Positions 1,203-25,400 of a DNA stretch of 64,000 bases are shown here, piece by piece. Within the stretch, counting starts at the first letter, position 1. Every line of letters begins with the position of its first letter. The stretch lies in IMG/VR virus record IMGVR_UViG_3300042892_004016, positions 1 to 64,000 of that record. One strand, 5' to 3'. Under the pieces are notes generated by a model. The model ran no database searches. It was not told the DNA's origin and saw only the letters and a program-made list of their open reading frames with translations. The stretch comes from a virus. The translations under genes and the position numbers were made by a program.

Positions 1203-1230
1203 AAAAAATCCACCCTCAGGTGGATTTTTG
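1203..1230. terminator. Rho-independent terminator, probably bidirectional, downstream of pqqA
   Basis: AAAAAATCCACC-CTCA-GGTGGATTTTT inverted repeat flanked by A/T runs. Confidence 0.75.
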
Positions 1231-1245
1231 TTAATCTAAATCGTA

Positions 1246-1320
1246 TTAACGATTGGCGATGTACATTGTGATTTCAAAACCAAAACGTAGATCAGTTGCT
1301 TGTGGTGTAGTCCAGTTCAT
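1246..1320 (-). CDS. pqqA: Pyrroloquinoline quinone precursor peptide PqqA (24 aa, MNWTTPQATDLRFGFEITMYIANR)
   Basis: Manual translation; too short for the ORF track. It has the W-x-x-P...DLRFGFE-x-x-x-Y signature including the E-x3-Y pair cross-linked into PQQ. It has an AAGGA RBS, an upstream TAAATA (1361-1366) and a downstream terminator. Confidence 0.92.
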   Translation of the reverse strand: MNWTTPQATDLRFGFEITMYIANR

Positions 1321-1447
1321 TTTAATTTCCTTTAAGTTAAGTTTTTAAATACTTCATTAGTATTTAACGTAAGTATACAGCTATTTTGGATAGAAGTACA
1401 TAGAGAAAATCATGATTTTGCACTACGCAAACCAGCTGGTTCAGAAA

Positions 1448-2854
1448 TTAGAAACTTAGCTGACCGCGCAACATGACAACTTTTTCACCGTTGACACGAC
1501 TGCCTACTACACCCACAGGAGCACCAAATTTAGTGTCTACATAGTTTAACATGACTCTAACATTGTCATTTACAAACCATGTTAGTCCATACGTAAGTGA
1601 CGTTGCACGATTGGTTTTGCCTGCTGCTACTGCAATATCGCTGGCATCAAATTCACTGGCTCGTACACCCACTTGCCATGCACCAGGTCCGCCTTTACCA
1701 ACTGCGGCATTTGGCTTGATCCAGTCAAACGCACCATTTTTGTACACATGCGATTCACCAGTCAAGTTATATATGGCCTGCACATAATTGCCTTTGATTT
1801 CTTGATTGGACCCAACTGCTGGATCATACTTGAAATTAAATTGTTCGCCTTGTATTTTTAATCCTTTCCAAGCCACTGCTGCTTCAATGCCCTGACGAGT
1901 GCGATCAGTGTCTCCACTTAACGCTGATCCAGTAAAGAACGCTGAACTTGCACGACCTTCTGTACGACCACTTGCAGGAACAACACCTGATTTAACTGTG
2001 CCAGTACTATAAGCGGCACCTAGGTGCGCTATTACGTCTTTGTTCTGCACGAGTTCCGCAAAGTTTACTGTAACACGACCAATGATGTCGTTGCTGTCAA
2101 CAGTGGCACTTTTATTACCACGTCCACGACTGGCAGCTACCGCCCAGGTCAGTCCCGCACGTGGGACACCATGTACCATAAAGCCAGTTTCTTTGGCAGG
2201 AATAAACTCGCCTTCAGATTGACCAATTAAACTGCGTTCCATGAAGTCAATGTTGTTACTACTGGTAAGTTGTTCTAAACTAAATGGCATTTTGAATTGA
2301 CCCATGGTAAACTGCAGTTGCGGTTCAGCAGCGTAGTTTACCCAGAACTCGTCGATGGTTGATGTTGTACTAGAAGCACCTACATCATTGCCAAAGTTTG
2401 CCAGTAACAAAAATTTCCAATCCTTTTGAAATTGTCCACGTACACCAAAGCGGGCGCGGCGATTTTCAATACCATTTTGATACGGATCAGTACTTTGTCC
2501 CACTGAGTAGTCTGGACTGTATGCACGATAGTCTGTGTGTAATCGGCCGGTCAATTGAATTGTATTTGCACCATCTTTGCTTTTAAATCCTAAACCGTTT
2601 TCCAACACAGATCCGTCGTTGGCTTTGGCAATACGATAATTATTACTGTCTCTGACATCTTTATCAATACGGCTATTATTGAACTGTTTGTTCTCCAAAG
2701 TTTCTTGGTAAGTTGTGACTCTGGCATCATGCTCTTGTTTGGTGATTACGCCTTTTTGTAGCAGTAAATCCAATAAGTCAGTGTGATCATCTGCCGCAGC
2801 AGTTTGTGACAAGCCAATCATGCCAGCCAGTACTACAATTGTTGCTAATTTCAT
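1448..2854 (-). CDS. Phosphate-selective outer-membrane porin, OprO/OprP family
   Basis: Signal peptide; GRLHTDY, RRARFGVRG and GQFKMPFSLEQLTSSNNIDFMERS motifs; C-terminal Phe; overlaps the pstS stop codon. Confidence 0.85.
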   Translation of the reverse strand: MKLATIVVLAGMIGLSQTAAADDHTDLLDLLLQKGVITKQEHDARVTTYQETLENKQFNNSRIDKDVRDSNNYRIAKANDGSVLENGLGFKSKDGANTIQLTGRLHTDYRAYSPDYSVGQSTDPYQNGIENRRARFGVRGQFQKDWKFLLLANFGNDVGASSTTSTIDEFWVNYAAEPQLQFTMGQFKMPFSLEQLTSSNNIDFMERSLIGQSEGEFIPAKETGFMVHGVPRAGLTWAVAASRGRGNKSATVDSNDIIGRVTVNFAELVQNKDVIAHLGAAYSTGTVKSGVVPASGRTEGRASSAFFTGSALSGDTDRTRQGIEAAVAWKGLKIQGEQFNFKYDPAVGSNQEIKGNYVQAIYNLTGESHVYKNGAFDWIKPNAAVGKGGPGAWQVGVRASEFDASDIAVAAGKTNRATSLTYGLTWFVNDNVRVMLNYVDTKFGAPVGVVGSRVNGEKVVMLRGQLSF

Positions 2855-3864
2855 TTAATTTCTCCAATGTTAAATTTTGTCCACTCAACACGAACCTTGT
2901 CCTGCACACTTTTAGGAAGTGGCACGTAGTCAAGTTCGGTTGCCATTGCGCTGCCGTTGTTGAACGACCAGCTAAAGAATTTCAATACTGCTCTGCCTAC
3001 TAGAGGATCTTGTTGCTTCTTGTGCATTATTATAAACGATGCACCCGTGATTGGCCAAGCGTTTTGGTGTTTCTGGTCTGTTAATACGGTGGCCATACCA
3101 TTAGTGCCAGTCCATTCTGCACCATCTGCTGCTGCCTTGAATGTTTCGTCATCGGGTAACACCCATTTGCCTGCTTGATTCTTCAACTGAGCAGGAGATA
3201 GTTTGTTCTTCTTGGCATAGGCATACTCTACATAGCCAATTGATCCCTTAGCTTGCATGACCATGGCTGCTACACCTTCATTGCCCTTGCCACCAATACC
3301 TGCTGGCCACTTGACTGCTGTACCATCGCCCACTTTTGTTTTCCAATCTGGCACTGTCTTGCTTAACCAATTGGTAAACAAGAATGTAGTACCTGATCCA
3401 TCGCTGCGATGCACTACCGTGATTGCCTGTGCTGGAAGTTTTGCATCTGGGTTCAATGCTACAATTGCTGCATCGTTCCACTTAGTGATCTTACCCAAGT
3501 AGATATTGGCAATGACCTCTGCGGTAAATTTCAGTTGTCCAGGAACAATACCTTCTACATTGACCACTGGCACTACACCTCCAATGATTGCTGGAAACTG
3601 TACTAGGTCTTCTTTCTCTAGGTCTTCCATTTTTAATGGCATATCACTGGCGCCAAAGTCCACTGTTTTGGCCTTGATCTGTTTGATGCCGCCGCCTGAA
3701 CCAATTGATTGATAGTTGAGTCCGATGCCTGTTGCTGCTTTGTATGCTTCGGCCCATTTTGAATAGATAGGATAAGGAAATGTTGCTCCTGCTCCTGTTA
3801 AATCTGCTGCTACTGCTTGGCCCACTAGTAATGCTGATAACGCCAATATTTTTACTAATTTCAT
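2851..3864 (-). CDS. pstS: Phosphate ABC transporter substrate-binding protein PstS
   Basis: Signal peptide; GAGATFPYP, YQSIGSGGG, DFGASD, HRSDGSGTT, GKGNEGVA and IGYVEYAYA motifs. Confidence 0.96.
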   Translation of the reverse strand: MKLVKILALSALLVGQAVAADLTGAGATFPYPIYSKWAEAYKAATGIGLNYQSIGSGGGIKQIKAKTVDFGASDMPLKMEDLEKEDLVQFPAIIGGVVPVVNVEGIVPGQLKFTAEVIANIYLGKITKWNDAAIVALNPDAKLPAQAITVVHRSDGSGTTFLFTNWLSKTVPDWKTKVGDGTAVKWPAGIGGKGNEGVAAMVMQAKGSIGYVEYAYAKKNKLSPAQLKNQAGKWVLPDDETFKAAADGAEWTGTNGMATVLTDQKHQNAWPITGASFIIMHKKQQDPLVGRAVLKFFSWSFNNGSAMATELDYVPLPKSVQDKVRVEWTKFNIGEIK

Positions 3865-3891
3865 ATGATTTCCTTTTTAAAGTTATTGATG

Positions 3892-3920
3892 ATTATATAC
3901 TACTGCGTTGCCAAAGTCAA
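3892..3920 (-). promoter_or_regulatory. Near-consensus sigma70 promoter for pstS-porin
   Basis: TTGACT-17 nt-TATAAT on the - strand, followed by an AAGGA RBS. Confidence 0.75.
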
Positions 3921-3990
3921 CCGTAAGTCGTCAACTCTGAATTGATTCTGGTTACGAGTTCCAGTAGCACTCTATCGTTGTGCTCGATTT

Positions 3991-4989
3991 TTAAACTATT
4001 TCAATTAAATTGTGTTTAAATGTATTCCAACAGGCGTGCCATGTCCATTTGTTACTCAATTCTATCACCCGTGGCCTTGATAAACGTAAACAAACCTCTA
4101 CTGCATCGGTTAGCTGGTCGCTCATGTAACCCGTACCCAATTCTATTACATCAATTGGTCCTGCTACTGGATATGCTGCCACTGGAGTTCCCAAACTCAT
4201 GGCTTCTATCATCACAATGCCAAATGTGTCTGACTTGCTGGGAAATGCAAATACATCTGCACGACTGTACCAATCAGCCAATGCAGTTCCTGTCTGATAC
4301 CCAGTAAATTGCACTTGTGGATACCGGTTCTCTAACATGGCTCTTTGTGGTCCATCTCCTACTACAACTACATCATACTGATTGCTCAGTTCACACACTG
4401 ATTGCACATTTTTTTCTTTGCTTACACGACCAACATACAGCACAATGGGACGAGCATTTGGGTGTGGCCAGACCTGTGTGGGTGTTAGCCTGCATCTGTC
4501 CACTCCTCTGGTCCATGCAGTGACTGGTGCTGCAAACCCATGCGCCTGTAAATCTGCGACCATGGTTTGTGTAGTAGTCATCACACACCTGGAGTTTTTG
4601 TGAAACCACTTGAGATAACACCAGGTGATAAATTCAGGCGCATGATAAATCTGTTTTAAAAACTCAGGAAACTTTGTATGATAACTGGTATTATACTGCC
4701 AGCCTTTGAAATCTAACCAAATTCTAGCGGCTAATCCTATGGGACCTTCTGTGGCGATATGAATATAATCCGGCTCCATCGCCTTAATCTTCGCACCAAT
4801 CGCCCAGGGCCAGGAGAGTTTAACTTCAGGATAACCAGGAGCATCAACATGATGGAACTGCCTGGGATCAAGATAAACAATACAGTAGCCGTCACTACTA
4901 GCATGGCTCTCAATATTCTTGAACGTGGTAACCACGCCATTGATCTGTGTTGGTTCATTGTCTGTTACAATTAGGATCGTTTTACGCAT
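3991..4989 (-). CDS. GT4 (GT-B) glycosyltransferase, Agt-like glycolipid synthase
   Basis: TD..PQINGVVTT, IHIATEGPIG, SYHTKFPE, YVGRVSKEKN and FPSKSDTFGIVMIEAMSLGTPV motifs; lies downstream of a plcP-like gene as in bacterial plcP-agt loci. Confidence 0.85.
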   Translation of the reverse strand: MRKTILIVTDNEPTQINGVVTTFKNIESHASSDGYCIVYLDPRQFHHVDAPGYPEVKLSWPWAIGAKIKAMEPDYIHIATEGPIGLAARIWLDFKGWQYNTSYHTKFPEFLKQIYHAPEFITWCYLKWFHKNSRCVMTTTQTMVADLQAHGFAAPVTAWTRGVDRCRLTPTQVWPHPNARPIVLYVGRVSKEKNVQSVCELSNQYDVVVVGDGPQRAMLENRYPQVQFTGYQTGTALADWYSRADVFAFPSKSDTFGIVMIEAMSLGTPVAAYPVAGPIDVIELGTGYMSDQLTDAVEVCLRLSRPRVIELSNKWTWHACWNTFKHNLIEIV

Positions 4990-5144
4990 TTTGCATCAAC
5001 TTTAAATGAATCAAATTTCAATGACCAGGTGATTGTCTTTAGACTTTGTTCGCAACTGGTTTGATCTGGAAATTCAATTGTGACTCTGCCCGGAATGTCT
5101 TTTGGATCGTTTAGGTGTACCGCTATCAATATCATCAACCACAT
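4971..5144 (-). CDS. Small protein (57 aa) with hydrophobic N-terminus and two Cys, overlapping both neighbouring genes
   Basis: Manual translation MWLMILIAVHLNDPKDIPGRVTIEFPDQTSCEQSLKTITWSLKFDSFKVDAKCVKRS with an AGGAG RBS. Confidence 0.6.
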   Translation of the reverse strand: MWLMILIAVHLNDPKDIPGRVTIEFPDQTSCEQSLKTITWSLKFDSFKVDAKCVKRS

Positions 5145-5898
5145 TGTCTGTCTCCTGTGTCCAAGTTACTATCTGCCAGTGTCCGTCATGATGCTCTACC
5201 AGTGCAGTCATGCTTTCCACCCAATCGCCATCATTCATGTATATGATGCCATCTATTTCTTTTATTTCTGCATGATGAATATGACCACATATCACTCCAT
5301 CAAAGCCACGCTTGCGACAATAGCCAGCAAGATTATGCTCAAACTGAAAAATAAAGTCCACGGCTTTCTTGACTCTATGCTTGAGATAAAAAGACAGACT
5401 CCAATAACCAAAGCCCATCCTACGACGAAGCCAATTAAAACGGCTGTTAACACTGAGAATAACATCATATGCCTTGTCTCCTAAAAATCCCAACCAGGGA
5501 GCCAGTCTGGTAATGCCATCAAACAAGTCGCCGTGTGTGACCAAGTAATGTTTGCCATCTACTCCAATGTGTTCAGATTGATTTGCTATTTCTATTAGAC
5601 CAAATCCTGGATCATACTGCATGAAGGGTCTGAGAAATTCATCGTGATTGCCTGCCACATATACCACTCGGGTACCACGTTTGGCATGCCCCAATACTCT
5701 GCGAACCACATTGGTGTGGCTTTGTTTCCAGCGCCATTTGTTTTGCTTAATCTTCCATGCATCAATTATATCGCCCACCAGATACAGTGTTTCACAAGAG
5801 TTGTTTTTGAGGAAATTGTTTAATGCTTCTGCTTTGCAGTCGCGGGTTCCAAGATGTACGTCACTGATGAAGATAGTTCTGTATGTTTTAGTAGACAT
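5074..5898 (-). CDS. plcP: PlcP-like phospholipase C (LpxH-like calcineurin-type metallophosphoesterase)
   Basis: SDVHLG, GDIID, GNHDE, HGD and GHIH metal motifs, plus the PlcP/LpxH2-subfamily segments YWSLS.YLK..VK.AV and NDGDWVES.TALVEH; paired with a GT4 gene. Confidence 0.8.
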   Translation of the reverse strand: MSTKTYRTIFISDVHLGTRDCKAEALNNFLKNNSCETLYLVGDIIDAWKIKQNKWRWKQSHTNVVRRVLGHAKRGTRVVYVAGNHDEFLRPFMQYDPGFGLIEIANQSEHIGVDGKHYLVTHGDLFDGITRLAPWLGFLGDKAYDVILSVNSRFNWLRRRMGFGYWSLSFYLKHRVKKAVDFIFQFEHNLAGYCRKRGFDGVICGHIHHAEIKEIDGIIYMNDGDWVESMTALVEHHDGHWQIVTWTQETDNVVDDIDSGTPKRSKRHSGQSHN

Positions 5899-5920
5899 AC
5901 TAGTATTTAGAGGCCGTAGT

Positions 5921-5938
5921 ATGACAAGCGTGTTACAA
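5921..5938 (-). promoter_or_regulatory. Putative Pho box (PhoB-binding site) upstream of plcP
   Basis: TTGTAAC-ACGC-TTGTCAT: two 7-mers at 11-nt period matching the CTGTCAT-N4-CTGTCAT-type consensus, about 11 nt upstream of a TAAATA element. Confidence 0.65.
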
Positions 5939-5955: not shown

Positions 5956-6600
5956 TTATTTTGCCATTAGATCGTCAACAAACTCCAATAACAGGTCGTG
6001 ATGTGCGCCCTTGTGGTAATGTTTGCCCATCCAGCTGTAGCCATCATACCAAAACTGTTCGCTTTCTGGATGGCAGCCTATCAGTCCAATTCTGTCTTGT
6101 ACTATGGCCATGGCATCACCATTGGCATATGTAGCTACTGTTTTGAATTTGGTGTGGTCACCCACCAGTGCGCAGCCGTCGTAAAAGAACATTCTATCAG
6201 GTTGATTGTTCCAAGTTACTGCAATTGCTTTAGCATGCGGGCGTCTGGTATCGGTGTTGGGCTGAGTTATATACTGCACTGCATCCACATCGTGTAGTAT
6301 ATTAAAGTAATGTTTGCCCGCCCAGTATGCGCCCATGCAAATACCCAAGTATCTGCCGCCTGATTTGACAAAACTTATCACGCTATCTGCATTGTTTTTG
6401 AGCAGTGACTGGTATGACGCAGCATCACCAAATCCACCAGGTACGGCAATCATGCTTACACCGTCGAAGAAGTTGTCTTCCACTTCACTTTTTGAAAAGA
6501 TTTTGAAATTGTAATGTTGCCCCAAGGCCTTGATGATACCATTGCCGCTTTGTACCGAACATTTTGGGTCAGCTATAAACAGGGCAATTGTGGGTTTCAT
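5956..6600 (-). CDS. Class I glutamine-amidotransferase-like protein (BPL_N-like)
   Basis: VPGG, GGRYLGICMGAY nucleophile elbow and HPE motif. Confidence 0.75.
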   Translation of the reverse strand: MKPTIALFIADPKCSVQSGNGIIKALGQHYNFKIFSKSEVEDNFFDGVSMIAVPGGFGDAASYQSLLKNNADSVISFVKSGGRYLGICMGAYWAGKHYFNILHDVDAVQYITQPNTDTRRPHAKAIAVTWNNQPDRMFFYDGCALVGDHTKFKTVATYANGDAMAIVQDRIGLIGCHPESEQFWYDGYSWMGKHYHKGAHHDLLLEFVDDLMAK

Positions 6601-6703
6601 CCGTGTTTTCGTAAGAACATTTCAATAAGCATAATAAATCCCTGTTATCTGATATTTAACTGAGGAACCAGGGGTATTTTAATAAGTTTGGCTATAGTGG
6701 TAA

Positions 6704-6725
6704 AATAGGCTCCGAAGAGCCTATT
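6704..6725 (-). terminator. Terminator hairpin at the 3' end of the tmRNA coding piece
   Basis: AATAGGCTC-TTCG-GAGCCTATT followed by TT on the - strand (cUUCGg tetraloop). Confidence 0.75.
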
Positions 6726-7040
6726 GCTATTTTTGGTTACAAGGTATAACTACCCCGGAAATCACGCTGCTAGAGCGTAGACCTCATCGTTAGATGCGTT
6801 TGCATTTACGTGTTTTGCTTGATTTACGGTCATCGCCTACCGTGTTGTCCATATCCTTACTTATTGCCCAATCGAAACCTGGTCGCCCCCATCAAAAGCA
6901 ATCTAGTTTGGATTCGAACCTTGTCCTAGTCTTGTCGATCTGCACTTCCCACTGTACTGACCAGATTGCTTTTGGTGGAGGCGAGGGGAATCGAACCCCT
7001 GTCTTGAACACCTTTCATTCAACTTCATACAACAATAACT
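6726..7040 (-). ncRNA. ssrA: Circularly permuted (two-piece) tmRNA: acceptor piece ~7040-6973, intervening segment 6972-6891, coding piece 6890-~6726
   Basis: The T-arm and acceptor 3' end (AGGGGTTCGATTCCCCT-CGCCTCC-A-CCA, ending 6973) precede the 5' end GGGGGCG (6890). The 7-bp acceptor stem has G3.U70. P2 pairings TTGGGCA/TGTTCAA and ACAAC/GTTGT, a pk1-like ACGGT/ACCGT stem and a tag ORF are present. The outer ends are approximate. Confidence 0.9.
6762..6803 (-). other. tmRNA proteolysis-tag reading frame ANASNDEVYALAA*
   Basis: GCA resume codon after TAAAT; ends in YALAA-TGA like proteobacterial SsrA tags. Confidence 0.88.
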
Positions 7041-7068
7041 TATAGTATATATTTAACTGGTATTATCG

Positions 7069-7569
7069 TCAACCGTTGTGGGTATCGTCACCATAGTGCT
7101 GTTTGCTGGTGTACACCACTTCAGTTTTTTTGGCACCAGTATACTGTGCTGTTGGGCGCATCCACACTTCATGTTCTTCTACGTACCCACTGTCTGTTAA
7201 GCCATAGTGCTTGACCATGGCAGTGTAGTCTAATAAACAATCTTGTGGATTAAATGGTTTGGCAACTATTACCCAATCATCTTGAGTTTCCAGAGTCTGC
7301 ACAAAGTTCACCGCACCATCTAGCTGAGTGGCAAAGGCCACAACTACTCCGTTGGATTTAATGGCGTTCAGTTCACGATCCTTTGGTATTATCGCACGAA
7401 ACAGTTGCTGTACCCGTGGTGCTCGCCTAAAGGGTTCGCTTTCTGGACTGTTTAGAATCACCTGTGCAGCGGCATCTGTGTTCCACATTTCTTGCCAGTC
7501 TTGTACCGCCTGAACAAAGTCAGGGGTCAATTGGTCAGTGGATTCAGTTAAGATTTCTTTGATATTCAT
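7069..7569 (-). CDS. Hypothetical late protein (166 aa), possibly capsid-packaged; weak ADP-ribosyltransferase-like motifs
   Basis: Perfect TATAAATA upstream; MNIKEILTES N-terminus; LFRAI...AFAT...EHEV motif order. Confidence 0.55.
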   Translation of the reverse strand: MNIKEILTESTDQLTPDFVQAVQDWQEMWNTDAAAQVILNSPESEPFRRAPRVQQLFRAIIPKDRELNAIKSNGVVVAFATQLDGAVNFVQTLETQDDWVIVAKPFNPQDCLLDYTAMVKHYGLTDSGYVEEHEVWMRPTAQYTGAKKTEVVYTSKQHYGDDTHNG

Positions 7570-7573
7570 TGAG

Positions 7574-7581
7574 TATTTATA
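7574..7581 (-). promoter_or_regulatory. T4-type late promoter TATAAATA
   Basis: Exact T4 gp55 consensus 4 nt upstream of the ATG at 7569. Confidence 0.75.
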
Positions 7582-7615
7582 CGCAGTAAAACAAACATGA
7601 TACTGTGTACTTACA

Positions 7616-7903
7616 TTAATCTTTAAAAATACCAGGTGGGTACTTGATTATCATGTTATCCGCCCAATGTATTACAATAAAGTTTTCCTCTTGCTTGATT
7701 ACTGTCCAGCAACCATTAAAGATTATTTTACCGTCTTCCGTTGCCCAAGACTTGTATTCAAATACTTCTGAAATATGTGAATCGGTGCATGGGTCTGATG
7801 AGATAACTATGCTACCATTGGATTCATTTTCGGCTTTCAGTTCTTTTGCCATGACAACAGATGATGCTAGTAATAGCAGTATCGCAGTTATTTTGCTAAA
7901 CAT
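7616..7903 (-). CDS. Small secreted/periplasmic protein
   Basis: Better start at ATG 7903 (MFSKITAILLLLASSVVMA signal peptide), directly after the stop of the upstream small ORF; C...GCW motif. Confidence 0.6.
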   Translation of the reverse strand: MFSKITAILLLLASSVVMAKELKAENESNGSIVISSDPCTDSHISEVFEYKSWATEDGKIIFNGCWTVIKQEENFIVIHWADNMIIKYPPGIFKD

Positions 7904-7905
7904 GA

Positions 7906-8064
7906 TTATTCCGTTTCTTTTAGAACACATCTGGCTACAATATCACTTCTGTTTTTTACGATTGCAGTTGCTGCTGCCCAACAATCTTCAAACTGGGGAT
8001 AAGATTTTAATTCTTGTTCAACGTCCTGAGACAATATTATTACAAACAACACGTATACAGACAT
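7906..8064 (-). CDS. Small two-Cys membrane-anchored protein (52 aa)
   Basis: Manual translation MSVYVLFVIILSQDVEQELKSYPQFEDCWAAATAIVKNRSDIVARCVLKETE with a GGAG RBS; paralog of 8085-8252. Confidence 0.65.
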   Translation of the reverse strand: MSVYVLFVIILSQDVEQELKSYPQFEDCWAAATAIVKNRSDIVARCVLKETE

Positions 8065-8084
8065 GATCAATTCTCCATAGAAAT

Positions 8085-8252
8085 TTATTCTACTACTCTT
8101 TTTTCACATCTGGCTTGAATCGTTTTTTCTCTGTGCCGTGTGATGGTCCTAACCACTTCTAAACATTCTTTTTGCGTATTGTATGATTTCCATTCTCGCT
8201 CTACCCCATCGCCTGATACGATAACTATGAGAACAAATACAATAGATTCCAT
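8085..8252 (-). CDS. Small two-Cys membrane-anchored protein (55 aa)
   Basis: Manual translation MESIVFVLIVIVSGDGVEREWKSYNTQKECLEVVRTITRHREKTIQARCEKRVVE with an AAGGA RBS. Confidence 0.65.
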   Translation of the reverse strand: MESIVFVLIVIVSGDGVEREWKSYNTQKECLEVVRTITRHREKTIQARCEKRVVE

Positions 8253-8266
8253 ACGCCGTCCTTTGT

Positions 8267-8374
8267 TTAGTTTGGAGCTTCCTTATATACTAGCCAAAAT
8301 GCTACCAGTAAGGAAACAATGAGCAGTACTCCCAAAAGAAACCCCACAATAAAATAAATCTGCTCTGGATTCAT
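8267..8374 (-). CDS. Single-pass membrane micro-protein (35 aa)
   Basis: Manual translation MNPEQIYFIVGFLLGVLLIVSLLVAFWLVYKEAPN; fills the gap between co-oriented genes. Confidence 0.5.
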   Translation of the reverse strand: MNPEQIYFIVGFLLGVLLIVSLLVAFWLVYKEAPN

Positions 8375-8390
8375 TATATGTTTACGCTGA

Positions 8391-11300
8391 CTATTCTGGT
8401 AACGGTTCTAATGGTACCGTTAAATCGTCCACGTAAGGCACTTCAAATTGCATCAAGTATTTTTGTTCTCTCGTAAATCCGTTGTAGTCAGTGGCTACTA
8501 TAACAAATTCAAACACGCCTGCATCCAGTGGCGTACCTGAAATCGTGCCAGTGGATCCTGAACTGGCGATGTTTAATCCAGTGGGTAGCTGAGATCCTGC
8601 TTTAACTGTAAAGCTGTATGGCGCGGTACCACCAGTGGCCATTATAGTGGCTGAGTAACTGTAACCAGTTGATCCTGGTTGTAGTCTGGTTGGGTAACTC
8701 AATGTTATGACTGGATTGTTAATGGTAATAGAGTAATTTTTAGTAGCTTTGTTGTAGTTACTGTCAATTACATCAATTGCAAAACTGGTTTCTGTTCCAA
8801 ATTGGTCTGCTACATCTGGAGTACCTGTAATTACTGCCGAATCACTAGTGATGGGCACTATACTGAGTCCACGTGGCAACTGGGTGCCCATGGCCATTAC
8901 AAATACGTAAGGGGCTACCCCGCCTGAAGCAGAGACTGTTTCAGAAGTGTATGCAGTTTTGGCAATGCCTGAGCTGAGTACCAGTCTTGTGGGTCGTACT
9001 GAAATATCCACTGCAGTAACTGAGATGTTTATTGTTTGAGTCACTGAGAATCCATAACTGTCTACTGCAGTGATTGGGAAATCGTAACCACCCAGTATAG
9101 TAGGAGTTCCCTCTATATCTATTGTGGTATCAGTGGCGTTGGTCAACTGCATTCCATTTGGAAAAGCAGTGGCTGCTGGTAAGATAAAGTTATAGGGACC
9201 AATGCCGCCGCTGGCTGTGATAGTTTGCGTTGCGTAAGACTGATTTACTTTTGCGGCAGACAATCTTACTGGCGACAATGTTAACTTGGGTGCTTGCACA
9301 TTAATCTGATAACCTTGTGTGCCACTATATCCATAGTTGTCAGTGGCGCTAATCGTGAATATGAATGGAGACAGTGCAGTTGTAGTGGGTGTGCCAGTTA
9401 ATACACCAGTGGCATTTAATACCACTCCTGCAGGCAATTCACCGGTTGCTATTGAGTATTGATATGGCGCCGTTCCACCACTGGCAGTCAATTGCATACT
9501 GTATGGTATTGCAAAAGTAACAGTGGGTAATGTTATAGTGGGCTTGATTATATTACTGGGCCCAAGTATTATAGTGGGAGCGATTACGGTTATTGCCACT
9601 TTATTGGTAGTACGATGTCCAGTGCTGCTTGTAGCAGTCAATAAAATATAGCTGGTGCCCACACTGGTTGCAGCGTAAGTGTATCCTTCACCGTCCAACT
9701 GGGTACTACTAATGCCAAGTCCTTCTGCGGTAACAGCAGCCGCATCGGTTGATGTCCAAGTGAACAGTGTTTGTTCACCAACAGCAATAGTCTGCTTCAA
9801 CAGATTGCCAGTAATAGTGGGTATTATGGGAGTGGGTGCAACCACTAGAACTTCACAATTGGTGTTTGTGCTATGCCCAGTTTTACTGTAGGCAGTGATC
9901 ACCACTGACTGCTTGCCAGCAGTGATAGTGGGAGTTATGCTGACTGATCCATTCAATTGAGTACTGGCATGCGCCCCAGATACTCTTACTGAACTGGCAT
10001 CATATGTCATCCAAGCTAGAGTAGTAGATTCTCCTGAAATAATTGTAGGTGGATTAAAACCAGCCGTAATTACTGGAGTAACGGGGGCGGCTTCTATTAT
10101 ATTAATATCAATCGTTTTAGTTACTGATTCATTGGTTGAGCTAGTGGCAGTAACATAGACTGATTGAGTTCCCAACAGTGCGGGAACTACTATAGTTCCT
10201 GATCCAGTTAATTCGTCGCTAGTAATCAACCCACTTACTGCAACTGTTAGTGCATCGGTAGTCTGCCAAGTAAAGGTAACTGATTGTCCAGCCGAAACAG
10301 AATATTTGTCTGCCGAGCATATAACTGTTGGCAACTTTGCCACTGTAAAATCCAACTGCATTGCGGCAGTGTCGGTAGATGCACTGGTTGCACTCAATAC
10401 TATCGGGTAGCTGACTCCAGGAGTATCGGGTGCAACAATTAATGCAGTACCTGATAGTGCTGTCTGGTGCCATGCGAGTGCATCGTTATCCATTGTCAAG
10501 CTGACTGCATCCTGTACATCCCACATTACAACAACTGATTGCCCTGGCACTATGTTGCTGCTGGGGTTCAATGTAGCAGTAATTTTAGGTATTATTACTG
10601 GCTGAGATATTATTTCCAACTGTAACTGCTTGGTAACTTTATCTCCAGTGTAGCTAGTTGCTGTCAAATAGACTGCATATGTACCTGGTATCGTGGGTGC
10701 AGTGACTTTGGCTGATCCCGATAATTCACTGGAGTTAATGTTCAGATCAGCGCTGGTTACTGTAACTCTGACTGCATGTTCAGTAGTCCAGGTTAGGGTA
10801 CATGATTTTTTTGCATTAAGTTTGGCGGCCGAAAACTCAGCACTGGTAAAAATTGGCACGACTGTCCCAACTTCTGGTAAAGATAATCTAAGTGGAGCAA
10901 CTACAGTAGTTGTGCCACCTGGTCCGGTTGCTGTTATTGTTTCGTTGAACGTTGGATCATTGACCGTAGTGTCAGTGAGCTTGTAAAACCCATCAGTGTA
11001 TTGTTTGGAGCCTGACCCTGCATATTGCTGCGCGCCTGTGGATCCAAGGGTAACATGAGTTGCGTTGGTTGTAGTCCAACTCAGTGTGCTGGTTTCAGTT
11101 ACCATTGTTGGATTGGGATTCCATGCACTAAACACAGCTGGTGCCGGATAAGCAATATCTAAGTCAGTTACAACTGTTCCTTCAATTGTAGGAGTGCCCC
11201 AAGTGAGTTGTGAATTTATTTCAGTGGGTGCCAATAATGTCATCGTGGCTGTTGTGCCAGGCAATGCGTATCCGCCTTCTACAAGCACCGACTCGGGTAC

Positions 11301-12134
11301 TTGGGTCAACGTGGTTGTTACAGTGATAATATTACCAGCATCATTGCTTGATCCTCTGGTACCATTGGATTTAACAGATACTGTTACATTACTCTGTAGA
11401 TAATCTAAGTTACCCACTGTGGCGAATTGTTTAAATACCTCAATATCATTTACTGTTAGCGCATAGTAACCTTCGGTGGCTAGTGTAGTCGCTGATCCTG
11501 ACCCATTAAGTTTACTGATCCCGTTGTACTTTACACCAGCTATTGTTATTGGTGTTGACTCATTGGGTGCGCTTATGTATATTCTACCGCATGCTTGTGC
11601 TAAATTACTCCACAGTGCATTAACTCCTGCTGCTGTTGGATGAGCAAGATCAATTGCCAGTTGTCCACCAGTGTTAAAGAAGTATCTGGCAGCATCACCT
11701 GATTCAAATGTAACTACATGGGTGAATACCAGATTATAATACCACAGCTTGCTGTTAGTAACAGTTTCAGCAACCGGATCCTGCTGTGTTGCTGCATTAA
11801 ATCTATTTGCGCTTAACAACGCTATGTTGTTTGCAATTACCGTCTTGTATGATAAAGTAGAGTCTAATCCAGTTAATCCACTGGGTGTTCCAGTTGCCGG
11901 ATCAACTTGAATTTGAGTAATGGCTGTGGCTTGATGTTGTGCGATATAATTTATCGTAGCAATTATATCAGCAAACGTGTTGGGCGATATGTCAGCTCCT
12001 GCAGTTACTGTAGATAATGTGGGTAATCTATATGATTGCAGTAAAAAATTCAATGAGTTTACTGGAGGGTTGGGTAACGCTCCAATGAACCCGTTGATAT
12101 CTGCTGCTGTTATAATATTAGTTGTATCGGCCAT
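8391..12134 (-). CDS. Virion fibre/structural protein with tandem Ig-like domains
   Basis: The N-terminal domain (F.SGDAARYFFN.GGQ) is shared with 16469-18499. It continues with repeated ~85-aa TL.WTT..A units and C-terminal He_PIG-like repeats (ASGGTAPY...LPAG..L...G.L.GTPT). Confidence 0.75.
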   Translation of the reverse strand: MADTTNIITAADINGFIGALPNPPVNSLNFLLQSYRLPTLSTVTAGADISPNTFADIIATINYIAQHQATAITQIQVDPATGTPSGLTGLDSTLSYKTVIANNIALLSANRFNAATQQDPVAETVTNSKLWYYNLVFTHVVTFESGDAARYFFNTGGQLAIDLAHPTAAGVNALWSNLAQACGRIYISAPNESTPITIAGVKYNGISKLNGSGSATTLATEGYYALTVNDIEVFKQFATVGNLDYLQSNVTVSVKSNGTRGSSNDAGNIITVTTTLTQVPESVLVEGGYALPGTTATMTLLAPTEINSQLTWGTPTIEGTVVTDLDIAYPAPAVFSAWNPNPTMVTETSTLSWTTTNATHVTLGSTGAQQYAGSGSKQYTDGFYKLTDTTVNDPTFNETITATGPGGTTTVVAPLRLSLPEVGTVVPIFTSAEFSAAKLNAKKSCTLTWTTEHAVRVTVTSADLNINSSELSGSAKVTAPTIPGTYAVYLTATSYTGDKVTKQLQLEIISQPVIIPKITATLNPSSNIVPGQSVVVMWDVQDAVSLTMDNDALAWHQTALSGTALIVAPDTPGVSYPIVLSATSASTDTAAMQLDFTVAKLPTVICSADKYSVSAGQSVTFTWQTTDALTVAVSGLITSDELTGSGTIVVPALLGTQSVYVTATSSTNESVTKTIDINIIEAAPVTPVITAGFNPPTIISGESTTLAWMTYDASSVRVSGAHASTQLNGSVSITPTITAGKQSVVITAYSKTGHSTNTNCEVLVVAPTPIIPTITGNLLKQTIAVGEQTLFTWTSTDAAAVTAEGLGISSTQLDGEGYTYAATSVGTSYILLTATSSTGHRTTNKVAITVIAPTIILGPSNIIKPTITLPTVTFAIPYSMQLTASGGTAPYQYSIATGELPAGVVLNATGVLTGTPTTTALSPFIFTISATDNYGYSGTQGYQINVQAPKLTLSPVRLSAAKVNQSYATQTITASGGIGPYNFILPAATAFPNGMQLTNATDTTIDIEGTPTILGGYDFPITAVDSYGFSVTQTINISVTAVDISVRPTRLVLSSGIAKTAYTSETVSASGGVAPYVFVMAMGTQLPRGLSIVPITSDSAVITGTPDVADQFGTETSFAIDVIDSNYNKATKNYSITINNPVITLSYPTRLQPGSTGYSYSATIMATGGTAPYSFTVKAGSQLPTGLNIASSGSTGTISGTPLDAGVFEFVIVATDYNGFTREQKYLMQFEVPYVDDLTVPLEPLPE

Positions 12135-22471: not shown

Positions 22472-25400
22472 TATTTGCAGCCTTCCATTTTAATCTCTTT
22501 ACTGTGTATCCAGTGTGCTGGTATGTTTCAGCATCCCAAGTAGCACCGGGTCTAGTAGTTATTCTAATTGAGAGGGTGTCAGTAATAACTCCCGGTACCA
22601 ATTCTTCTGGTCCGTAGCCTGACATGAATGCATCGCCCTTGATCTCATAGAAAGTTGTTTCGTCGGCCACTGTTAATGCGCTTACCCAAACAATACCATC
22701 ATAACTGCTTAATATTGTAGTATTGGCACCTGCTGCAATGAATCTCTCACCAGTATGTGAGATAGTGTGTAGTGTTTCCGTCGTACCGGAAATCATGGCA
22801 TCAAATGTAACGCCATCATAACTTACTAATATGACACCATTTTCACCCACTATGACGAATGCATTTTCTGCATATACTCCGGATAATAATTTTCCAGTTA
22901 TAGGGGCAGCGTTCAGTACACAAGTTTCATAATTGTATCCATTGGTTGTACTCAACAGAGTACCTGCATCCCCTGCTACAATTATCATATTGGTTGATGC
23001 TACTACCGCATTTAGTCCGTGAGCAGTAACTGCGGGTGTTAACTCTGACCAGTTTTTGCCGTCGTTGCTGGTAACGATGGTACCAACTTGTGTGGTAGTG
23101 GTTGATACTGCGCCACTGGCTGACACATTGGTGATTCCTGTACCCACTGCAATATAACCCTCAAAGAAATCACATGACAGGAATTTAACAGCATTCAATC
23201 TAGTAGAAGCTGCACCGATAAAATCATATGCTCTGTTCCAACCATATCCATCACGACTGGATATGATTTCATCACCAACTGCAACATAAAGACCATCATG
23301 TGACATGATGCTGTATAGTTTATCTAACGGTGCCGACAGTGATGTACTATCCCACTTAGTTCCCACGTCATCAAATGGCAATGAATCCCATGGAGTAAAT
23401 TCTCCTACAGTGGTCCAAACAAAACTGTCATAGCTTATGTATATAGGTGTATTGACATTGGTAGTGGATAGCATATAGATTTGACCATCGTATGTCATAT
23501 CAGTTAGTCCCAATACTTGTGCGCCAATTCTAGTTACTTGCCAAGTGCTGCCCTGGTCATAACTGTGCATGACCATTGAGAATGCTGGTCCATCAGCCGC
23601 AGCCACATACTTGTTGCCGTCATATATAACTGATACAATCTTTACTCCCTTGGGATAGAAAGATTGATCTTTTAATATGGTGTCAAGAGTCAATGCGCCA
23701 GTAAAATTATTGCCATAGTACGTGTTGTTGGGGTAATCTATTCCCGAAACTAGCAATGGCAGATTCTTACCCAACATGTCATCAGTTGGCTCATAGTAGC
23801 CCATGATTCTGTCTAGTGCATTTAGAGTAGGATCATCACTCTGTACCTGTACCCACTTGTCAAAGTTAAAGGTAGAATCGTTATTACTTTCAACACAGTT
23901 ATATAACCGTTTATTGAACGTGACCAGTGAACTGGCACTACGTGTATATCCACTGGTAATGATAACTGGCTCAGGCAAGTAAATGTTATCTGATGCAGTA
24001 TATGGGAACGGATTAGTAGTCACTCGCCATTCGCCACCAATAAAGGTTGGACTTGCAGTTGTATTCTTTACTGCTATGTAATAAGTTGCGCCATTCTTTA
24101 CAATAGTATCTTTAGTATAAGCAGTGTCGGCTGTCCAAAGATTGGGAACTGTTACGGGGTTAACCATTGCTGCATCATAGTATACTACCAATTGAGTATC
24201 AGTAATTGGCTTAACATAATATTGCTTGAATGTATCAGCCGCTATTCCATATAACTCATATATTAGAATACCATTTGTTATGGTAGTGTGAATTACTTTA
24301 ATTGTTGCATCATTTGTGCCATCAACTCCACCAAGTAGTGATCCCTTGACTGTGATGATATCTCCAGCTGCAAATGCAGTTCCCAAATTAGCAGTGTCCA
24401 GTTCAATAAAGTATTGATTCTTTATTGTACTGGTATTGAATTTAGGTGCAGAAAACTTAATAACTGCGGGATCAGCCAGTCCAGTGTATCCATCTGGTAA
24501 CAGACTTAGTGTAATAGCAGCAGGTGTTTCATAGAAATATACATTCATGCCTTTAAGTTGACCTGGCATTAATGGACTAGCTGCATAATCTGTGGTAACA
24601 GTCACTTGCTTGCCCAACGCACTAGATACTGCAACTACTGGTAGTACTTCACCTTGTAAGCTGGCACTCATTGTAGTAACTGCGCTGTCGTATAGCTTTG
24701 TTGCTGAGCTTGATTCATTACCACTGGCAGTAAAGTCACTATAGTAATATTCTCCTGCAGTCCACACAGTAACCTTGCTGTTATAACTGGTTCTGTCAAA
24801 CTTCAGTGTGGTTTTTAACTGTCTGGTTGGGGTATTAGTTGCCACTGCTACTGCTCTGGCAGTTACCGCTAGTAAATTACCAGCGCTTGCTCCTGCATCA
24901 GTGAACACGATGCGATGATTATCAGTTAATGCATTTTTCTTAGAAGTATACAGTGCAATAGTGGAAGTTAACCCAAATAGCTCATCAGTGAATACGACAC
25001 CAACATAGTAATGTTGTTGGTCTTCAATACCCATTACTGTATCGCCTATACCAGACTTATACTTAACTACATCGCCTGTTTTTAATGTGGCCGATGTGAG
25101 AGATATCGTATTCAACGAGAAATTAATAGCATCACTGTCAAATGAGACCGTGAATACTGGTTCTATAATTATTTCAGGAGTAACTGCGTAGCCATTGCCA
25201 GCATCCAGTATTTTTACACCCACTAATTTATCGCCAGACATAATAGCACTGACTCTGGCTGGCGTATTGGGAGCAGGATACATGTTAGTGTCAATATACA
25301 CTGTTATTTCCGGAGGATCAACGTAATCTCTACCTGAGTCTAGTACAACAACTCCTGGCATGTCTGTATAAACCAATGCATGTGGATTGTGCGCGGTGAT

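Follow-up and report, generated by a model that had tools for sequence, protein, structure and literature searches.

Results and discussion

Analysis of the first 64 kb (64,000 nucleotides, hereafter the window) of the 115,894-bp virus record IMGVR_UViG_3300042892_004016 identified a row of bacterial-type genes that probably forms an authentic module of phage auxiliary metabolism directed at phosphorus stress, its carrier being a freshwater phage of about 350–400 kb with T4-like baseplate genes. The row consists of plcP-like, agt-like, pstS, porin and pqqA genes with a Pho-box-like repeat; these features had been named in an earlier note written from the sequence, and all of them were confirmed at the positions given below, on the minus strand. 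The products are predicted to strip phosphate from host lipids, to replace these by sugar lipids and to add phosphate import, with the lipid genes lying behind a Pho-type site. The comparisons described here demonstrate what the genes are and to which families they belong, that they are conserved and spread among phages, and that the motif is specific. No description of a phage-borne module for lipid remodeling and phosphate import was found in searchable papers or GenBank phage records. The features of the locus are:

1203–1226, minus strand: intrinsic-terminator-like hairpin and T-tract closing the gene row (read from the sequence; not listed by the consensus scan)
1246–1320, minus strand: pqqA, PQQ precursor peptide, 24 aa, orphan gene (TIGR02107, 37.8 bits, cut-off 20)
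1448–2854, minus strand: OprO/OprP-family outer-membrane porin with signal peptide (Porin_O_P, PF07396, 6e-42)
2851–3864, minus strand: PstS, periplasmic high-affinity phosphate-binding protein with signal peptide (NF008171)
3892–3920, minus strand: sigma-70-type promoter TTGACT-N17-TATAAT before pstS-porin (11/12 matches, best site in the region by consensus scan)
3947–3990, minus strand: conserved two-hairpin element just after the agt stop codon
3991–4989, minus strand: Agt-like GT4, 332 aa, predicted diacylglycerol glycosyl- or glucuronosyl-transferase (PF00534, 8e-22; PF13439)
5074–5898, minus strand: PlcP-like metallophosphoesterase, LpxH paralog, 274 aa, predicted phospholipase C of lipid remodeling (PF00149, 8e-11)
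5904–5938, minus strand: predicted promoter of Pho-box type 5' of plcP, with a pair of 7-bp direct repeats (period 11 bp)
5956–6600, minus strand: gene of a BPL_N / class-I glutamine-amidotransferase-like protein (GICMG and HPE motifs)
6701–7086, minus strand: permuted two-piece tmRNA of betaproteobacterial type, phage-encoded (RF01850, 136 bits, gathering score 84)

Phage origin of the gene row

The contig carries baseplate and virion genes, the former T4-like, and the tetranucleotide composition of the island is typical of it (36% of 5-kb windows lie further from the rest). A 192-kb relative, G006, has structural genes that are collinear with those of the contig along about 45 kb, and it holds plcP-agt-pstS-porin in the same order internally, at 98.3–102.7 kb. 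The esterase is encoded by 208 IMG/VR stretches (75–96% identity among the 80 kept), and the module genes recur in several arrangements among relatives, which include a phage lineage of about 330 kb and another of about 160 kb. The virion genes, the composition, the G006 block and the recurrence in more than 200 viral contigs uphold the phage origin proposed in the earlier note; the last three also led us to reject a host-contig chimera.

A related question is whether the first 7 kb, coming from another phage or a host island of the same lake, were misjoined at the conserved tmRNA to the region of structural genes. The island is terminal on the contig, in four runs the tmRNA is where the Logan contigs break, with loose ends leading to other sequences, and the right-hand neighbors at 7069–12134 were found in no related locus. 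None of the Logan contigs listed bridges the tmRNA stretch (6753–7045) that separates the island from the structural genes, so that the join rests on the IMG/VR assembly, equal depth and composition. We nevertheless regard a misjoin as very improbable: two independent samples give similar depths to the left and right of the border (26.8 vs 33.3 and 8.4 vs 6.6), composition is the same across the join, and the collinear relative holds the same block internally. Even if misjoined, the island would come from a phage, since its nearest relatives are without exception viral contigs. Two other lake samples yielded contigs that match with 0–2 mismatches. Some contigs of RNA libraries correspond to plcP (99.2% identity) and to agt with the start of pstS (98.1%); the module genes are possibly expressed, and these contigs could also be DNA carry-over.

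The plcP-like and agt-like genes

By sequence, the esterase is the paralog found in bacterial plcP-agt operons. It shares with LpxH (UDP-2,3-diacylglucosamine diphosphatase; PDB 5B49, 6PH9 and 5K8K) the fold, made up of a metallophosphoesterase core plus a helical cap for lipid binding, as well as the metal motifs, which are all intact and invariant among the homologs compared. Its structure model shows this fold, helical cap included, and a PDB search with the model gave LpxH for each of the top 25 matches, at 16–22% identity only. Against the LpxH models the esterase scores 44 and 37 bits, whereas the equivalog cut-offs are much higher (134 and 190), and in the tree it forms one clade with 71 viral sequences (support 94), separate from true LpxH (support 100). 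Beta- and gammaproteobacterial genomes encode a true LpxH (270–333 bits) plus a PlcP-like paralog; Caulobacter segnis has the PlcP-like paralog and no true LpxH. The low scores, the separate clade and this coexistence rule out a true LpxH; the earlier note had named a grouping with LpxH as what would count against its PlcP assignment, and the esterase lies outside that group.

Identity to bacterial proteins of plcP-agt operons is 50–60% among the matches listed, and of the 80 bacterial loci nearest to the window, 63 have a homologous GT4 directly downstream of the esterase homolog, which is the published plcP-agt order (PMC4796936, PMC13691135). Two phages of cultured hosts in GenBank also encode homologs, both annotated as LpxH: Pelagibacter phage Mosig EXVC030M (Mosig_00120, 48.5% identity) and Synechococcus phage S-SRM01 (QPX48289, 38%). 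The Mosig gene adjoins pstS and points away from it, and neither homolog has an adjacent agt, porin or pqqA, unlike the gene in the window. A literature search found no paper treating either of them as PlcP.

The GT4 contains the signature motifs and the catalytic His/Asp dyad described for the characterized GTcp/Agt clade (PMC8231724), namely GRVSKEKN, FPSKSDTFG, H104, D254-x7-E262 and T160-R161, and shares with bacterial Agt/GTcp the Asp that replaces the usual GT4 Glu. In genome-wide searches of five bacterial genomes the best match was always the plcP-adjacent glycosyltransferase (231–272 bits), the next best scoring at most 105 bits; identity to the nearest bacterial orthologs, which are uncharacterized, is 37–44%. 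In the GT4 tree the phage sequences are set apart by a branch with full support. The esterase and the GT4 each form a phage-only clade. Motifs, best matches and tree support orthology of the GT4 to the plcP-adjacent Agt, and its assignment to Agt among the GT4 enzymes, suggested in the earlier note, stands. The link to PlcP and Agt function is a prediction from operon position, paralogy, published motifs and identity to uncharacterized bacterial orthologs.

Known plcP-agt examples are S. meliloti SMc00171, Phaeobacter MED193_17359, SAR11 HTCC7211 plcP with GTcp, P. aeruginosa PlcP with Agt, and B. cenocepacia BCAL2364-BCAL2365 (PMC4796936, PMC8231724, PMC8528852, PMC13691135). As in such operons, the window has an LpxH-like metallophosphoesterase gene with an Agt/GTcp-clade GT4 directly after it and a Pho-type repeat in front. 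The P. aeruginosa pair presumably corresponds to PA3219/PA3218. The window differs from the bacterial operons in that its genes are phage-carried, with both proteins in phage-only clades, dagK is absent and the pair is joined to pstS, porin and pqqA genes; moreover, its repeats have the form TGTAAY and the plcP mRNA is probably leaderless.

The Pho-box-type site

The site reads TTGTAAC (5938–5932), ACGC, TTGTCAT (5927–5921), 11 nt, TAAATA (5909–5904) and 5 nt, followed by the plcP ATG at 5898. The repeat alone matches the E. coli consensus at only 10 of 14 positions. The composite motif occurs exactly once in the 115,894-bp contig, both strands counted (0 of 100 shuffles). Related phage loci totaling 1.27 Mb have 41 copies, each with the 11-nt spacer and each directly upstream of a plcP-like gene (24) or pstS (17). 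Undibacterium pstS promoters have a like layout (TGTCAT, 5 nt, TGTCAT, 10 nt, TAnAGT), and Pho-type repeats were found at 15 of 80 bacterial plcP homologs vs 0.3% of random windows. The proposal of a Pho box heading the module thus holds in part: the site is conserved, at plcP and pstS only, but in the window it covers plcP-agt alone and not pstS-porin or pqqA.

The phage repeats read TGTAAY instead of the canonical TGTCAY, and 16 of 70 long ORFs have a TAAATA in the 60 nt before their start. T4-type late promoters have the sequence TATAAATA. The downstream TnTAAATA of the site resembles them, so the site could serve a phage factor, and the baseplate genes of the phage are T4-like. Repeat and TAAATA might accordingly form a phage-specific promoter for a phage activator or late sigma factor and not for host PhoB, with timing set by the infection programme. 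This is quite unlikely, since a general phage promoter would be expected at many genes, whereas the 116-kb contig has a single composite site and the 1.27 Mb of related loci have it at plcP or pstS only, and the geometry (7+4+7 bp, about 10–11 nt to a −10-like element) is of the PhoB-dependent type, as at Undibacterium pstS.

Proposed role during infection

Under the preferred reading, with control by host PhoB, active PhoB of a phosphate-starved host would bind the two direct repeats, which would stand in for the −35 element, and switch on plcP-agt, whose mRNA is probably leaderless or nearly so. The PlcP-like enzyme would remove phosphorylated head groups from host glycerophospholipids, leaving diacylglycerol, and the Agt-like GT4 would glycosylate the latter to phosphorus-free glycolipids; it is because of this conversion that the membrane is proposed to hold until lysis. 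The head-group phosphate would enter the nucleotide pool. In parallel, exported PstS and the OprO/P-type porin would let the host capture more phosphate across both outer membrane and periplasm, with pstS-porin of this phage probably transcribed from its own strong sigma-70-type promoter. PhoB binding, the enzyme substrates and the gain for the phage are what we infer here.

The analysis also turned up what appears, from base-pair covariation, to be a module-specific structured RNA. The two-hairpin element has compensatory changes at 7 of 10 base pairs. It has 54 copies in 80 phage loci, a single copy in the contig of the window and likewise a single one in bacterial loci totaling 1.09 Mb; an Rfam search gave no family match. 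In relatives 30 of the 54 copies lie immediately before the plcP ATG. As this element, and not a Pho-type site, precedes plcP in about half of the related loci, expression would not always be tied to phosphate. This would fit a role of plcP-agt mainly in altering the host envelope (for example, superinfection block, lysis delay or membrane stabilization), with phosphorus release as a side effect, and in published work phage adsorption and susceptibility are tied to aminolipids and to lipid renovation that depends on PlcP (PMC9804370, PMC9938194). Such a role as the main one is unlikely, given that the promoter motif, where present, is common to plcP and pstS only, the genes cluster with those of PstS and a phosphate porin, Pho-type repeats are enriched at the bacterial orthologs, and characterized bacterial orthologs are Pho-regulated (PMC4796936).

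PstS, porin and pqqA

PstS scores 414 bits against NF008171 (cut-off 339) and 404 bits against TIGR00975 (cut-off 205), and the start of the porin gene overlaps the pstS stop by 4 nt. The porin matches OprO (4RJW) and OprP (2O4V) with E ~5e-14. With these phosphate-/polyphosphate-selective porins of P. aeruginosa, to which it is likened by sequence, it shares the Pfam family, similarity over about 360 residues and the pst linkage; it differs in being phage-encoded and in an N-terminal extension of about 75 residues. It adjoins pstS in about 27 related viral loci, and no homolog was found in 50,697 GenBank phage records.

Zeng and Chisholm reportedly found in 2012 that cyanophage pstS and phoA are under host PhoBR control. 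Phage pstS is also present in pelagimyophages (PMC12379486). In both groups the phage copy raises phosphate uptake, and in cyanophages a Pho box gives control by the host starvation regulator, whereas pstS in the window has a constitutive-type promoter. The window PstS is 36–40% identical to cyanophage PstS. Compared with cyanophage pstS, the module adds the predicted functions of membrane-lipid mining, an outer-membrane porin and pqqA, and it lies in lake phages, probably of heterotrophic proteobacteria.

The PqqA peptide has the E16-x3-Y20 motif. Searches of five related phage records, of which three are 92% complete or more, gave no PqqC, PqqE or PQQ_2-repeat dehydrogenase, and pqqA is without a Pho motif and varies in position and orientation among relatives. 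Phage pqqA has been reported from Lake Baikal T4-like phages of Methylophilaceae and read as methanol dehydrogenase support (PMC7678222), which makes mobilization of mineral phosphate through pqqA, as envisaged in the earlier note, speculation; the orphan state of the gene and the missing Pho box leave that idea unsupported as well. The Baikal phages likewise are freshwater phages with an orphan PQQ precursor peptide gene, but they encode methanol dehydrogenase, unlike the five records, and in the window pqqA sits in a phosphate-related gene row. It is best seen as a separate auxiliary gene supplying the stoichiometric precursor peptide to the host's own PQQ pathway.

Flanking features

The BPL_N-like gene is a frequent companion of the module, its distance from plcP being under 10 kb in about half of the related loci; the nearest Atlas clusters of its product are 94–100% viral. 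The betaproteobacterial type of the tmRNA bordering the module hints at the host.

Gene content of the phosphorus module and integrity of the contig

Gene calls, profile scores and reading of the sequence confirmed every feature that an earlier note had named in the window, namely a minus-strand row of genes for a PlcP-like metallophosphoesterase (the esterase), an Agt-like glycosyltransferase, PstS, a porin and PqqA, with a Pho-box-like repeat at its head. The core of its reading, a phage-borne and Pho-type-regulated pair for phospholipid mining and glycolipid replacement together with genes for phosphate import, also stands, and we consider a phage lipid-remodelling pair with phosphate import under a Pho-type switch to be the probable overall mechanism. 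The features are as follows.

Features of the module and its surroundings (positions in the window; profile scores with the corresponding cut-offs)
6701-7086, minus: permuted tmRNA of the betaproteobacterial type (RF01850, 136 bits)
6600-5956, minus: BPL_N/GATase-like gene, upstream of the head repeat
5938-5904, minus: head repeat, TTGTAAC (5938-5932), ACGC, TTGTCAT (5927-5921), 11 nt, TAAATA (5909-5904), followed by 5 nt and ATG
5898-5074, minus: PlcP-like metallophosphoesterase, 274 aa (PF00149, 43 bits vs 21.5)
4989-3991, minus: Agt-like GT4 glycosyltransferase, starting 85 nt downstream of the esterase
3990-3947, minus: two-hairpin element of about 44 nt, just past the agt stop codon
3920-3892, minus: sigma-70-type promoter of pstS, TTGACT-N17-TATAAT (11 of 12 matches)
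3864-2851, minus: PstS (NF008171, 413.8 bits vs 339; TIGR00975, 404.4 vs 205)
2854-1448, minus: Porin_O_P protein (PF07396, 6e-42, 144.6 bits vs 20.9)
1320-1246, minus: pqqA, 24 codons (TIGR02107, 37.8 bits vs 20)
3' of pqqA, minus: hairpin and T-tract closing the gene row (sequence read)

The start of the porin gene overlaps the stop of pstS. From the open contig end a plus-strand glycine-rich ORF (1-903; GGGGGGGG, then GxxG repeats), which has no Pfam match, enters heading towards the module.

The record is 115,894 bp long (CheckV completeness 28%). Its structural genes, from 8.4 kb on, include those for virion proteins of very large size, a gp6-like baseplate wedge (phrog_10646, 2.6e-252) and a baseplate hub. 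Since the island lies at a contig end and beside a tmRNA, a classic spot for misjoins, a misjoin was tested directly. In tetranucleotide composition the island is typical of the contig: 36% of the 5-kb windows lie further from the contig mean than it does. The 192-kb relative G006 is collinear with the contig over the structural block (14-64 kb vs 62-14 kb in G006, protein identity 25-84%) and, at 98.3-102.7 kb, has the esterase, GT4, pstS and porin genes in the window's order, flanked on either side by over 90 kb of phage DNA. The baseplate protein and the esterase are also found together in another related record (G012, 328 kb, rated 92% complete). In two independent samples the contigs match with 0-2 mismatches, and the depth across the island border is similar (26.8 vs 33.3 and 8.4 vs 6.6). 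Every displayed public contig breaks inside the tmRNA, and none of those displayed bridges 6753-7045. A chimera with a host contig, which the earlier note had named as a danger to its reading, is thus contradicted by the composition, the internal block of G006 and the equal depth, all of which argue for phage DNA. A misjoin in this particular contig is very improbable, and even then the island would be phage DNA.

The esterase is PlcP-like and distinct from LpxH

The calcineurin-type metal-binding motifs (DxH, GD, GNHD/E, H and GHxH) are intact in the esterase, and their residues D13/H15, G42-D43, G83-N84-H85, H122, G205-H206 and H208 do not vary among the phage and bacterial homologues. The PlcP assignment depended on its placement relative to true LpxH, the lipid A enzyme paralogous to PlcP, and the esterase falls outside LpxH: it scores 44.3 bits vs 134 and 36.7 vs 190 with the LpxH equivalog models NF003743 and TIGR01854, and a tree with four true LpxH sequences as its root places it in a separate clade. 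True LpxH (270-333 bits) is encoded in Pseudomonas, Methylotenera, Chromobacterium and Noviherbaspirillum genomes, where the same search detected a paralogue resembling the esterase in three of the four (27-56 bits) and the loci found contain it in all four; Caulobacter segnis has the paralogue only. An LpxH identity is ruled out by the sub-cut-off scores, the separate clade and this coexistence.

By sequence, the match of the esterase to solved LpxH is marginal (27 bits). Its AlphaFold model (mean pLDDT 77) has a metallophosphoesterase core with a helical insertion at 123-197, and since each of its 25 best PDB hits is an LpxH structure, with a full-length alignment at 16-22% identity, the esterase is, as judged from this model, a lipid-handling relative of LpxH and not LpxH itself.

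The 80 nearest bacterial loci listed (50-60% identity) come from alpha-, beta- and gammaproteobacteria, and in 63 of them the gene right after the esterase homologue encodes a homologue of the window's GT4. The plcP-agt arrangement has been published for marine bacteria, Pseudomonas and Burkholderia (PMC4796936, PMC8528852, PMC13691135), and an example of a published criterion for PlcP is a BLAST E-value below 1e-40 to MED193_17359 (PMC4796936). A paper on Caulobacter lipids mentions neither PlcP nor Agt. The esterase is called PlcP-like here, with a phospholipase C function predicted from comparison with orthologues that are themselves uncharacterised.

In the tree, 71 viral sequences and that of the window form one clade (support 94), the sister of which is a sequence from a Methylotenera MAG, followed by Pelagibacter phage Mosig and Hyphomonas. 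This MAG sequence, the only bacterial one in the sister position, sits on a long branch and has no agt alongside. It is located near one end of a 669-kb contig and may represent a remnant prophage or phage-to-host transfer of the gene.

Databases label the esterase homologues LpxH, in GenBank phage records as well as in the names that JGI gives to metagenome homologues. Such labels, which imply lipid A synthesis, are a recurring mis-annotation that the PlcP reading corrects. An entry named lpxH, possibly a homologue, also appears in an AMG table of a Lake Baikal metatranscriptome.

An Agt-like glycosyltransferase with the motifs of the Agt/GTcp clade

Searched against five whole bacterial genomes, the window's GT4 finds its top hit each time in the glycosyltransferase adjoining plcP (231-272 bits; full-length identity 40-43%), and no other GT4 exceeds 105 bits. 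A fully supported branch separates the phage GT4s, which are 52-66% identical to that of the window, from 61 bacterial sequences.

The characterised SAR11 enzyme GTcp defines a clade that includes Agrobacterium Agt and has the motifs GRVAxEKN and FPSxTDTFG (PMC8231724). GTcp uses a His104/Asp256 dyad, with Asp replacing the usual Glu of GT4 enzymes, and contacts diacylglycerol through Thr162 and Arg163, Trp320 being also diacylglycerol-binding (PMC8231724). When positions were matched by motif rather than by direct alignment, the window's GT4 was found to contain GRVSKEKN (187-194), FPSKSDTFG (249-257), H104, D254-x7-E262, G82 and G85. T160-R161 stands at the offset expected for Thr162/Arg163, and tryptophans occur at 315, 317 and 321, any of which may be the counterpart of Trp320. 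The claim that this protein is Agt rather than another GT4 is supported by the constant best match and the clade motifs; it is the orthologue of the plcP-linked glycosyltransferase and a predicted diacylglycerol glycosyl- or glucuronosyltransferase.

PstS and the candidate phosphate porin

PstS scores above both equivalog cut-offs, and a signal-like sequence can be read at its N-terminus. The porin matches OprO (4RJW, E 5e-14) and OprP (2O4V, E 3e-13) in the PDB over residues 86-442, and it has the Porin_O_P family and sequence similarity in common with these proteins, which makes it a candidate phosphate porin. In the phosphate-selective porins of this kind, selectivity comes from an arginine ladder and a lysine cluster.

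A probable Pho-type switch upstream of plcP and pstS

The head repeat has 10 of 14 matches to two copies of CTGTCAT, the E. coli consensus, which taken alone is unimpressive, so that the case for a Pho site rests on conservation. A scan of the window at 12 or more of 14 matches to the doubled consensus returned only an unrelated site at 23191, and the same consensus revealed no Pho box upstream of pstS, pqqA or the GATase-like gene in the window. Alignment of the upstream regions of related loci yielded a composite motif, YTGTAAY, N4, YTGTAAY, 11 nt, TAAATA, 4-5 nt and the plcP ATG, which was then scanned on both strands. It occurs once in the 116-kb contig, at plcP (0 of 100 shuffles), and twice in G006, at plcP and pstS. 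In 1.27 Mb of related loci it was found 41 times, always directly upstream of plcP (24) or pstS (17) and always with a spacer of 11 nt, although some of these loci are near-duplicates and the independent cases are fewer.

The geometry of the head repeat, two 7-bp direct repeats with an 11-bp period located 11 nt before a -10-like TAAATA, agrees with that of PhoB-dependent promoters, in which such repeats replace the -35 element some 10 bp ahead of the -10 element, and it recurs in Undibacterium pstS promoters (TGTCAT, 5 nt, TGTCAT, 10 nt, TAnAGT). Pho-type repeats also precede bacterial plcP homologues in 15 of 80 cases, compared with 0.3% of random windows. By its geometry and its restriction to these genes, the head repeat would be a Pho-box-type promoter with a putative PhoB site. 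The phage repeats read TGTAAY, not TGTCAY, and it is possible that a phage factor, instead of PhoB, reads the repeat together with TAAATA; this alternative is favoured by the likeness of TnTAAATA to a T4-type late promoter, whereas the agreement with the Undibacterium geometry speaks for the putative PhoB site. If the Pho-type reading holds, the 41 natural promoter variants provide a clean set on phage borrowing of PhoB. Since only 4-5 nt separate TAAATA from the ATG, we infer that the plcP mRNA is leaderless or nearly so.

The idea of a single Pho box heading the whole row fails in the window, where pstS is served by its own sigma-70-type promoter. Here the Pho-type site of pstS has been lost and TTGACT-N17-TATAAT stands instead, whereas 17 related loci keep the Pho-type repeat at this gene; this looks like a change from starvation-induced to constitutive or early expression.

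A conserved two-hairpin RNA element

The element of about 44 nt that follows agt in the window is confined to this module. It was found in 54 copies in 80 phage loci, usually one in each (for example, L010:4012-4073 and L005:2179-2241), once in the window's contig and once in 1.09 Mb of bacterial loci; it is absent from G006. The consensus is AAAUCG, stem 1, CAAnGAUAGa, stem 1', CUGG, AAcuCGUAA, CCAG, which forms two hairpins with compensatory changes in seven of the ten base pairs, and no Rfam family matches it. Where plcP follows another gene or a sigma-70-type promoter, the element ends 8 nt before the plcP ATG; this is the position of 30 of the 54 copies in related phages, and no Shine-Dalgarno sequence is visible there. 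It may be a new cis-regulatory RNA; among its possible roles are those of a protein operator, a small sensor and a split ribosome-binding site. Standing, in many of these phages, in place of the Pho-type promoter, it may provide a second, post-transcriptional control of the module genes.

Distribution of the module among phages

The synteny survey has shown that the module recurs in several gene orders in more than 200 viral contigs. Scanning of IMG/VR identified 208 stretches encoding the esterase, the best 80 of them at 75-96% identity. Around the esterase in these 80 loci, six genes of the module region recur in shuffled arrangements: GT4 is directly downstream in about 45, pstS and the porin gene immediately precede the esterase in many others, all six genes are present in L030, and G006 has the order of the window. 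The carriers include the window's lineage of about 330-400 kb and records of about 160-167 kb rated 92-96% complete, which have only a weak gp6 match in common with that lineage; the module therefore moves between phage lineages. About 17 public runs, which come from some 13 studies of lakes, fresh water and estuaries, contain at least half of the 10-kb stretch that bears the island.

At L030:12946-15223, 3' of the module, rubrerythrin and a formamidase/acetamidase (FmdA_AmdA, 6e-89) are encoded, and there are no further phosphate genes among the neighbours at this locus. These two genes suggest a wider, variable island of auxiliary metabolic genes.

Relation to known phage phosphate genes

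Phage pstS and phoA, which raise phosphate uptake, are textbook auxiliary metabolism and concern external phosphate only; in cyanophages, pstS is under the control of the host PhoBR. The esterase has homologues in only four distinct GenBank phage genomes, and the annotated ones are labelled LpxH. In Pelagibacter phage Mosig, which has a cultured SAR11 host, pstS and a PlcP-like gene adjoin in divergent orientation (MT647606.1, 93031-94866), the latter annotated as UDP-2,3-diacylglucosamine hydrolase. GenBank phages contain no homologue of the porin and no close homologue of Agt. Pelagimyophage pstS has been published (PMC12379486), and searching the literature outside subscription journals yielded nothing on phage-encoded PlcP, viral lipid remodelling or a viral phosphate porin. 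As far as the literature and GenBank searched show, no phage would previously have been credited with a lipid-remodelling pathway or with a porin of the OprO/P type; as a phosphate-stress auxiliary module under a host-type switch, the module would extend the known theme of phage pstS.

The module would add an internal source of phosphorus beyond the uptake of external phosphate. The phospholipid phosphorus of the membrane is roughly comparable to that of the host chromosome, a meaningful amount for a phage packing 350-400 kb of DNA per capsid. A more extended scenario is put forward tentatively: in a large and widespread group of freshwater phages, the host starvation regulator would switch on the conversion of membrane phospholipid into phosphorus for phage DNA, with glycolipid as a patch and the phage porin widening import, and the RNA element as a possible second control. 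If this is true, some of the shifts from phospholipid to glycolipid in lakes that are read as bacterial phosphorus stress would be made by viruses. With more than 200 viral contigs, and with lake, freshwater and estuary samples in about 13 studies, the module is common rather than a one-off.

The orphan pqqA gene

The PqqA cross-link motif Glu-x3-Tyr is present (E16-I-T-M-Y20), and pqqA is served by a ribosome-binding site and a terminator of its own. It lacks a Pho-type site, and relatives differ in how far it lies from plcP and in its orientation. PqqC and PqqE gave nothing over the cut-offs in the window's contig, G006 and three other related records (G007; G008, 92% complete; G009, 96% complete), the PqqC search having also matched nothing in 14 control genomes, so that it is without a positive control. 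Nor did a PQQ_2-repeat dehydrogenase turn up in five records of the group, of which three reach a completeness of at least 92%. The part of the earlier note that linked pqqA to the mobilisation of mineral phosphate was accordingly not borne out: the gene is an orphan without a Pho site, its position is variable and its link to phosphorus is weak. Orphan phage pqqA has been reported in methylotroph phages of Lake Baikal and read as support of methanol dehydrogenase (PMC7678222). The safest reading is that pqqA supplies the precursor peptide to the PQQ pathway of the host, for whichever quinoprotein the host uses. A high depth of pqqA in the RNA run X19 is due to a conserved core of 43 nt whose flanks are foreign, and was assigned to other organisms.

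The tmRNA, the host and the GATase-like neighbour

The phage tmRNA is circularly permuted and two-piece, with the tag ANASNDEVYALAA and its own promoter (TTGACG-N17-TATACT). Two-piece tmRNA occurs in Comamonadaceae and Rhodocyclales. The permuted beta-type tmRNA is absent from the Methylotenera, Undibacterium, Noviherbaspirillum, Chromobacterium and Thiobacillus genomes tested, and the host is therefore probably another betaproteobacterial lineage.

The neighbouring BPL_N/class-I glutamine-amidotransferase-like protein retains the GICMG nucleophile elbow intact and contains an HPE motif. In the protein atlas it is closest to unnamed BPL_N clusters whose members are 94-100% viral, and in about half of the related loci its gene is no more than 10 kb from plcP.
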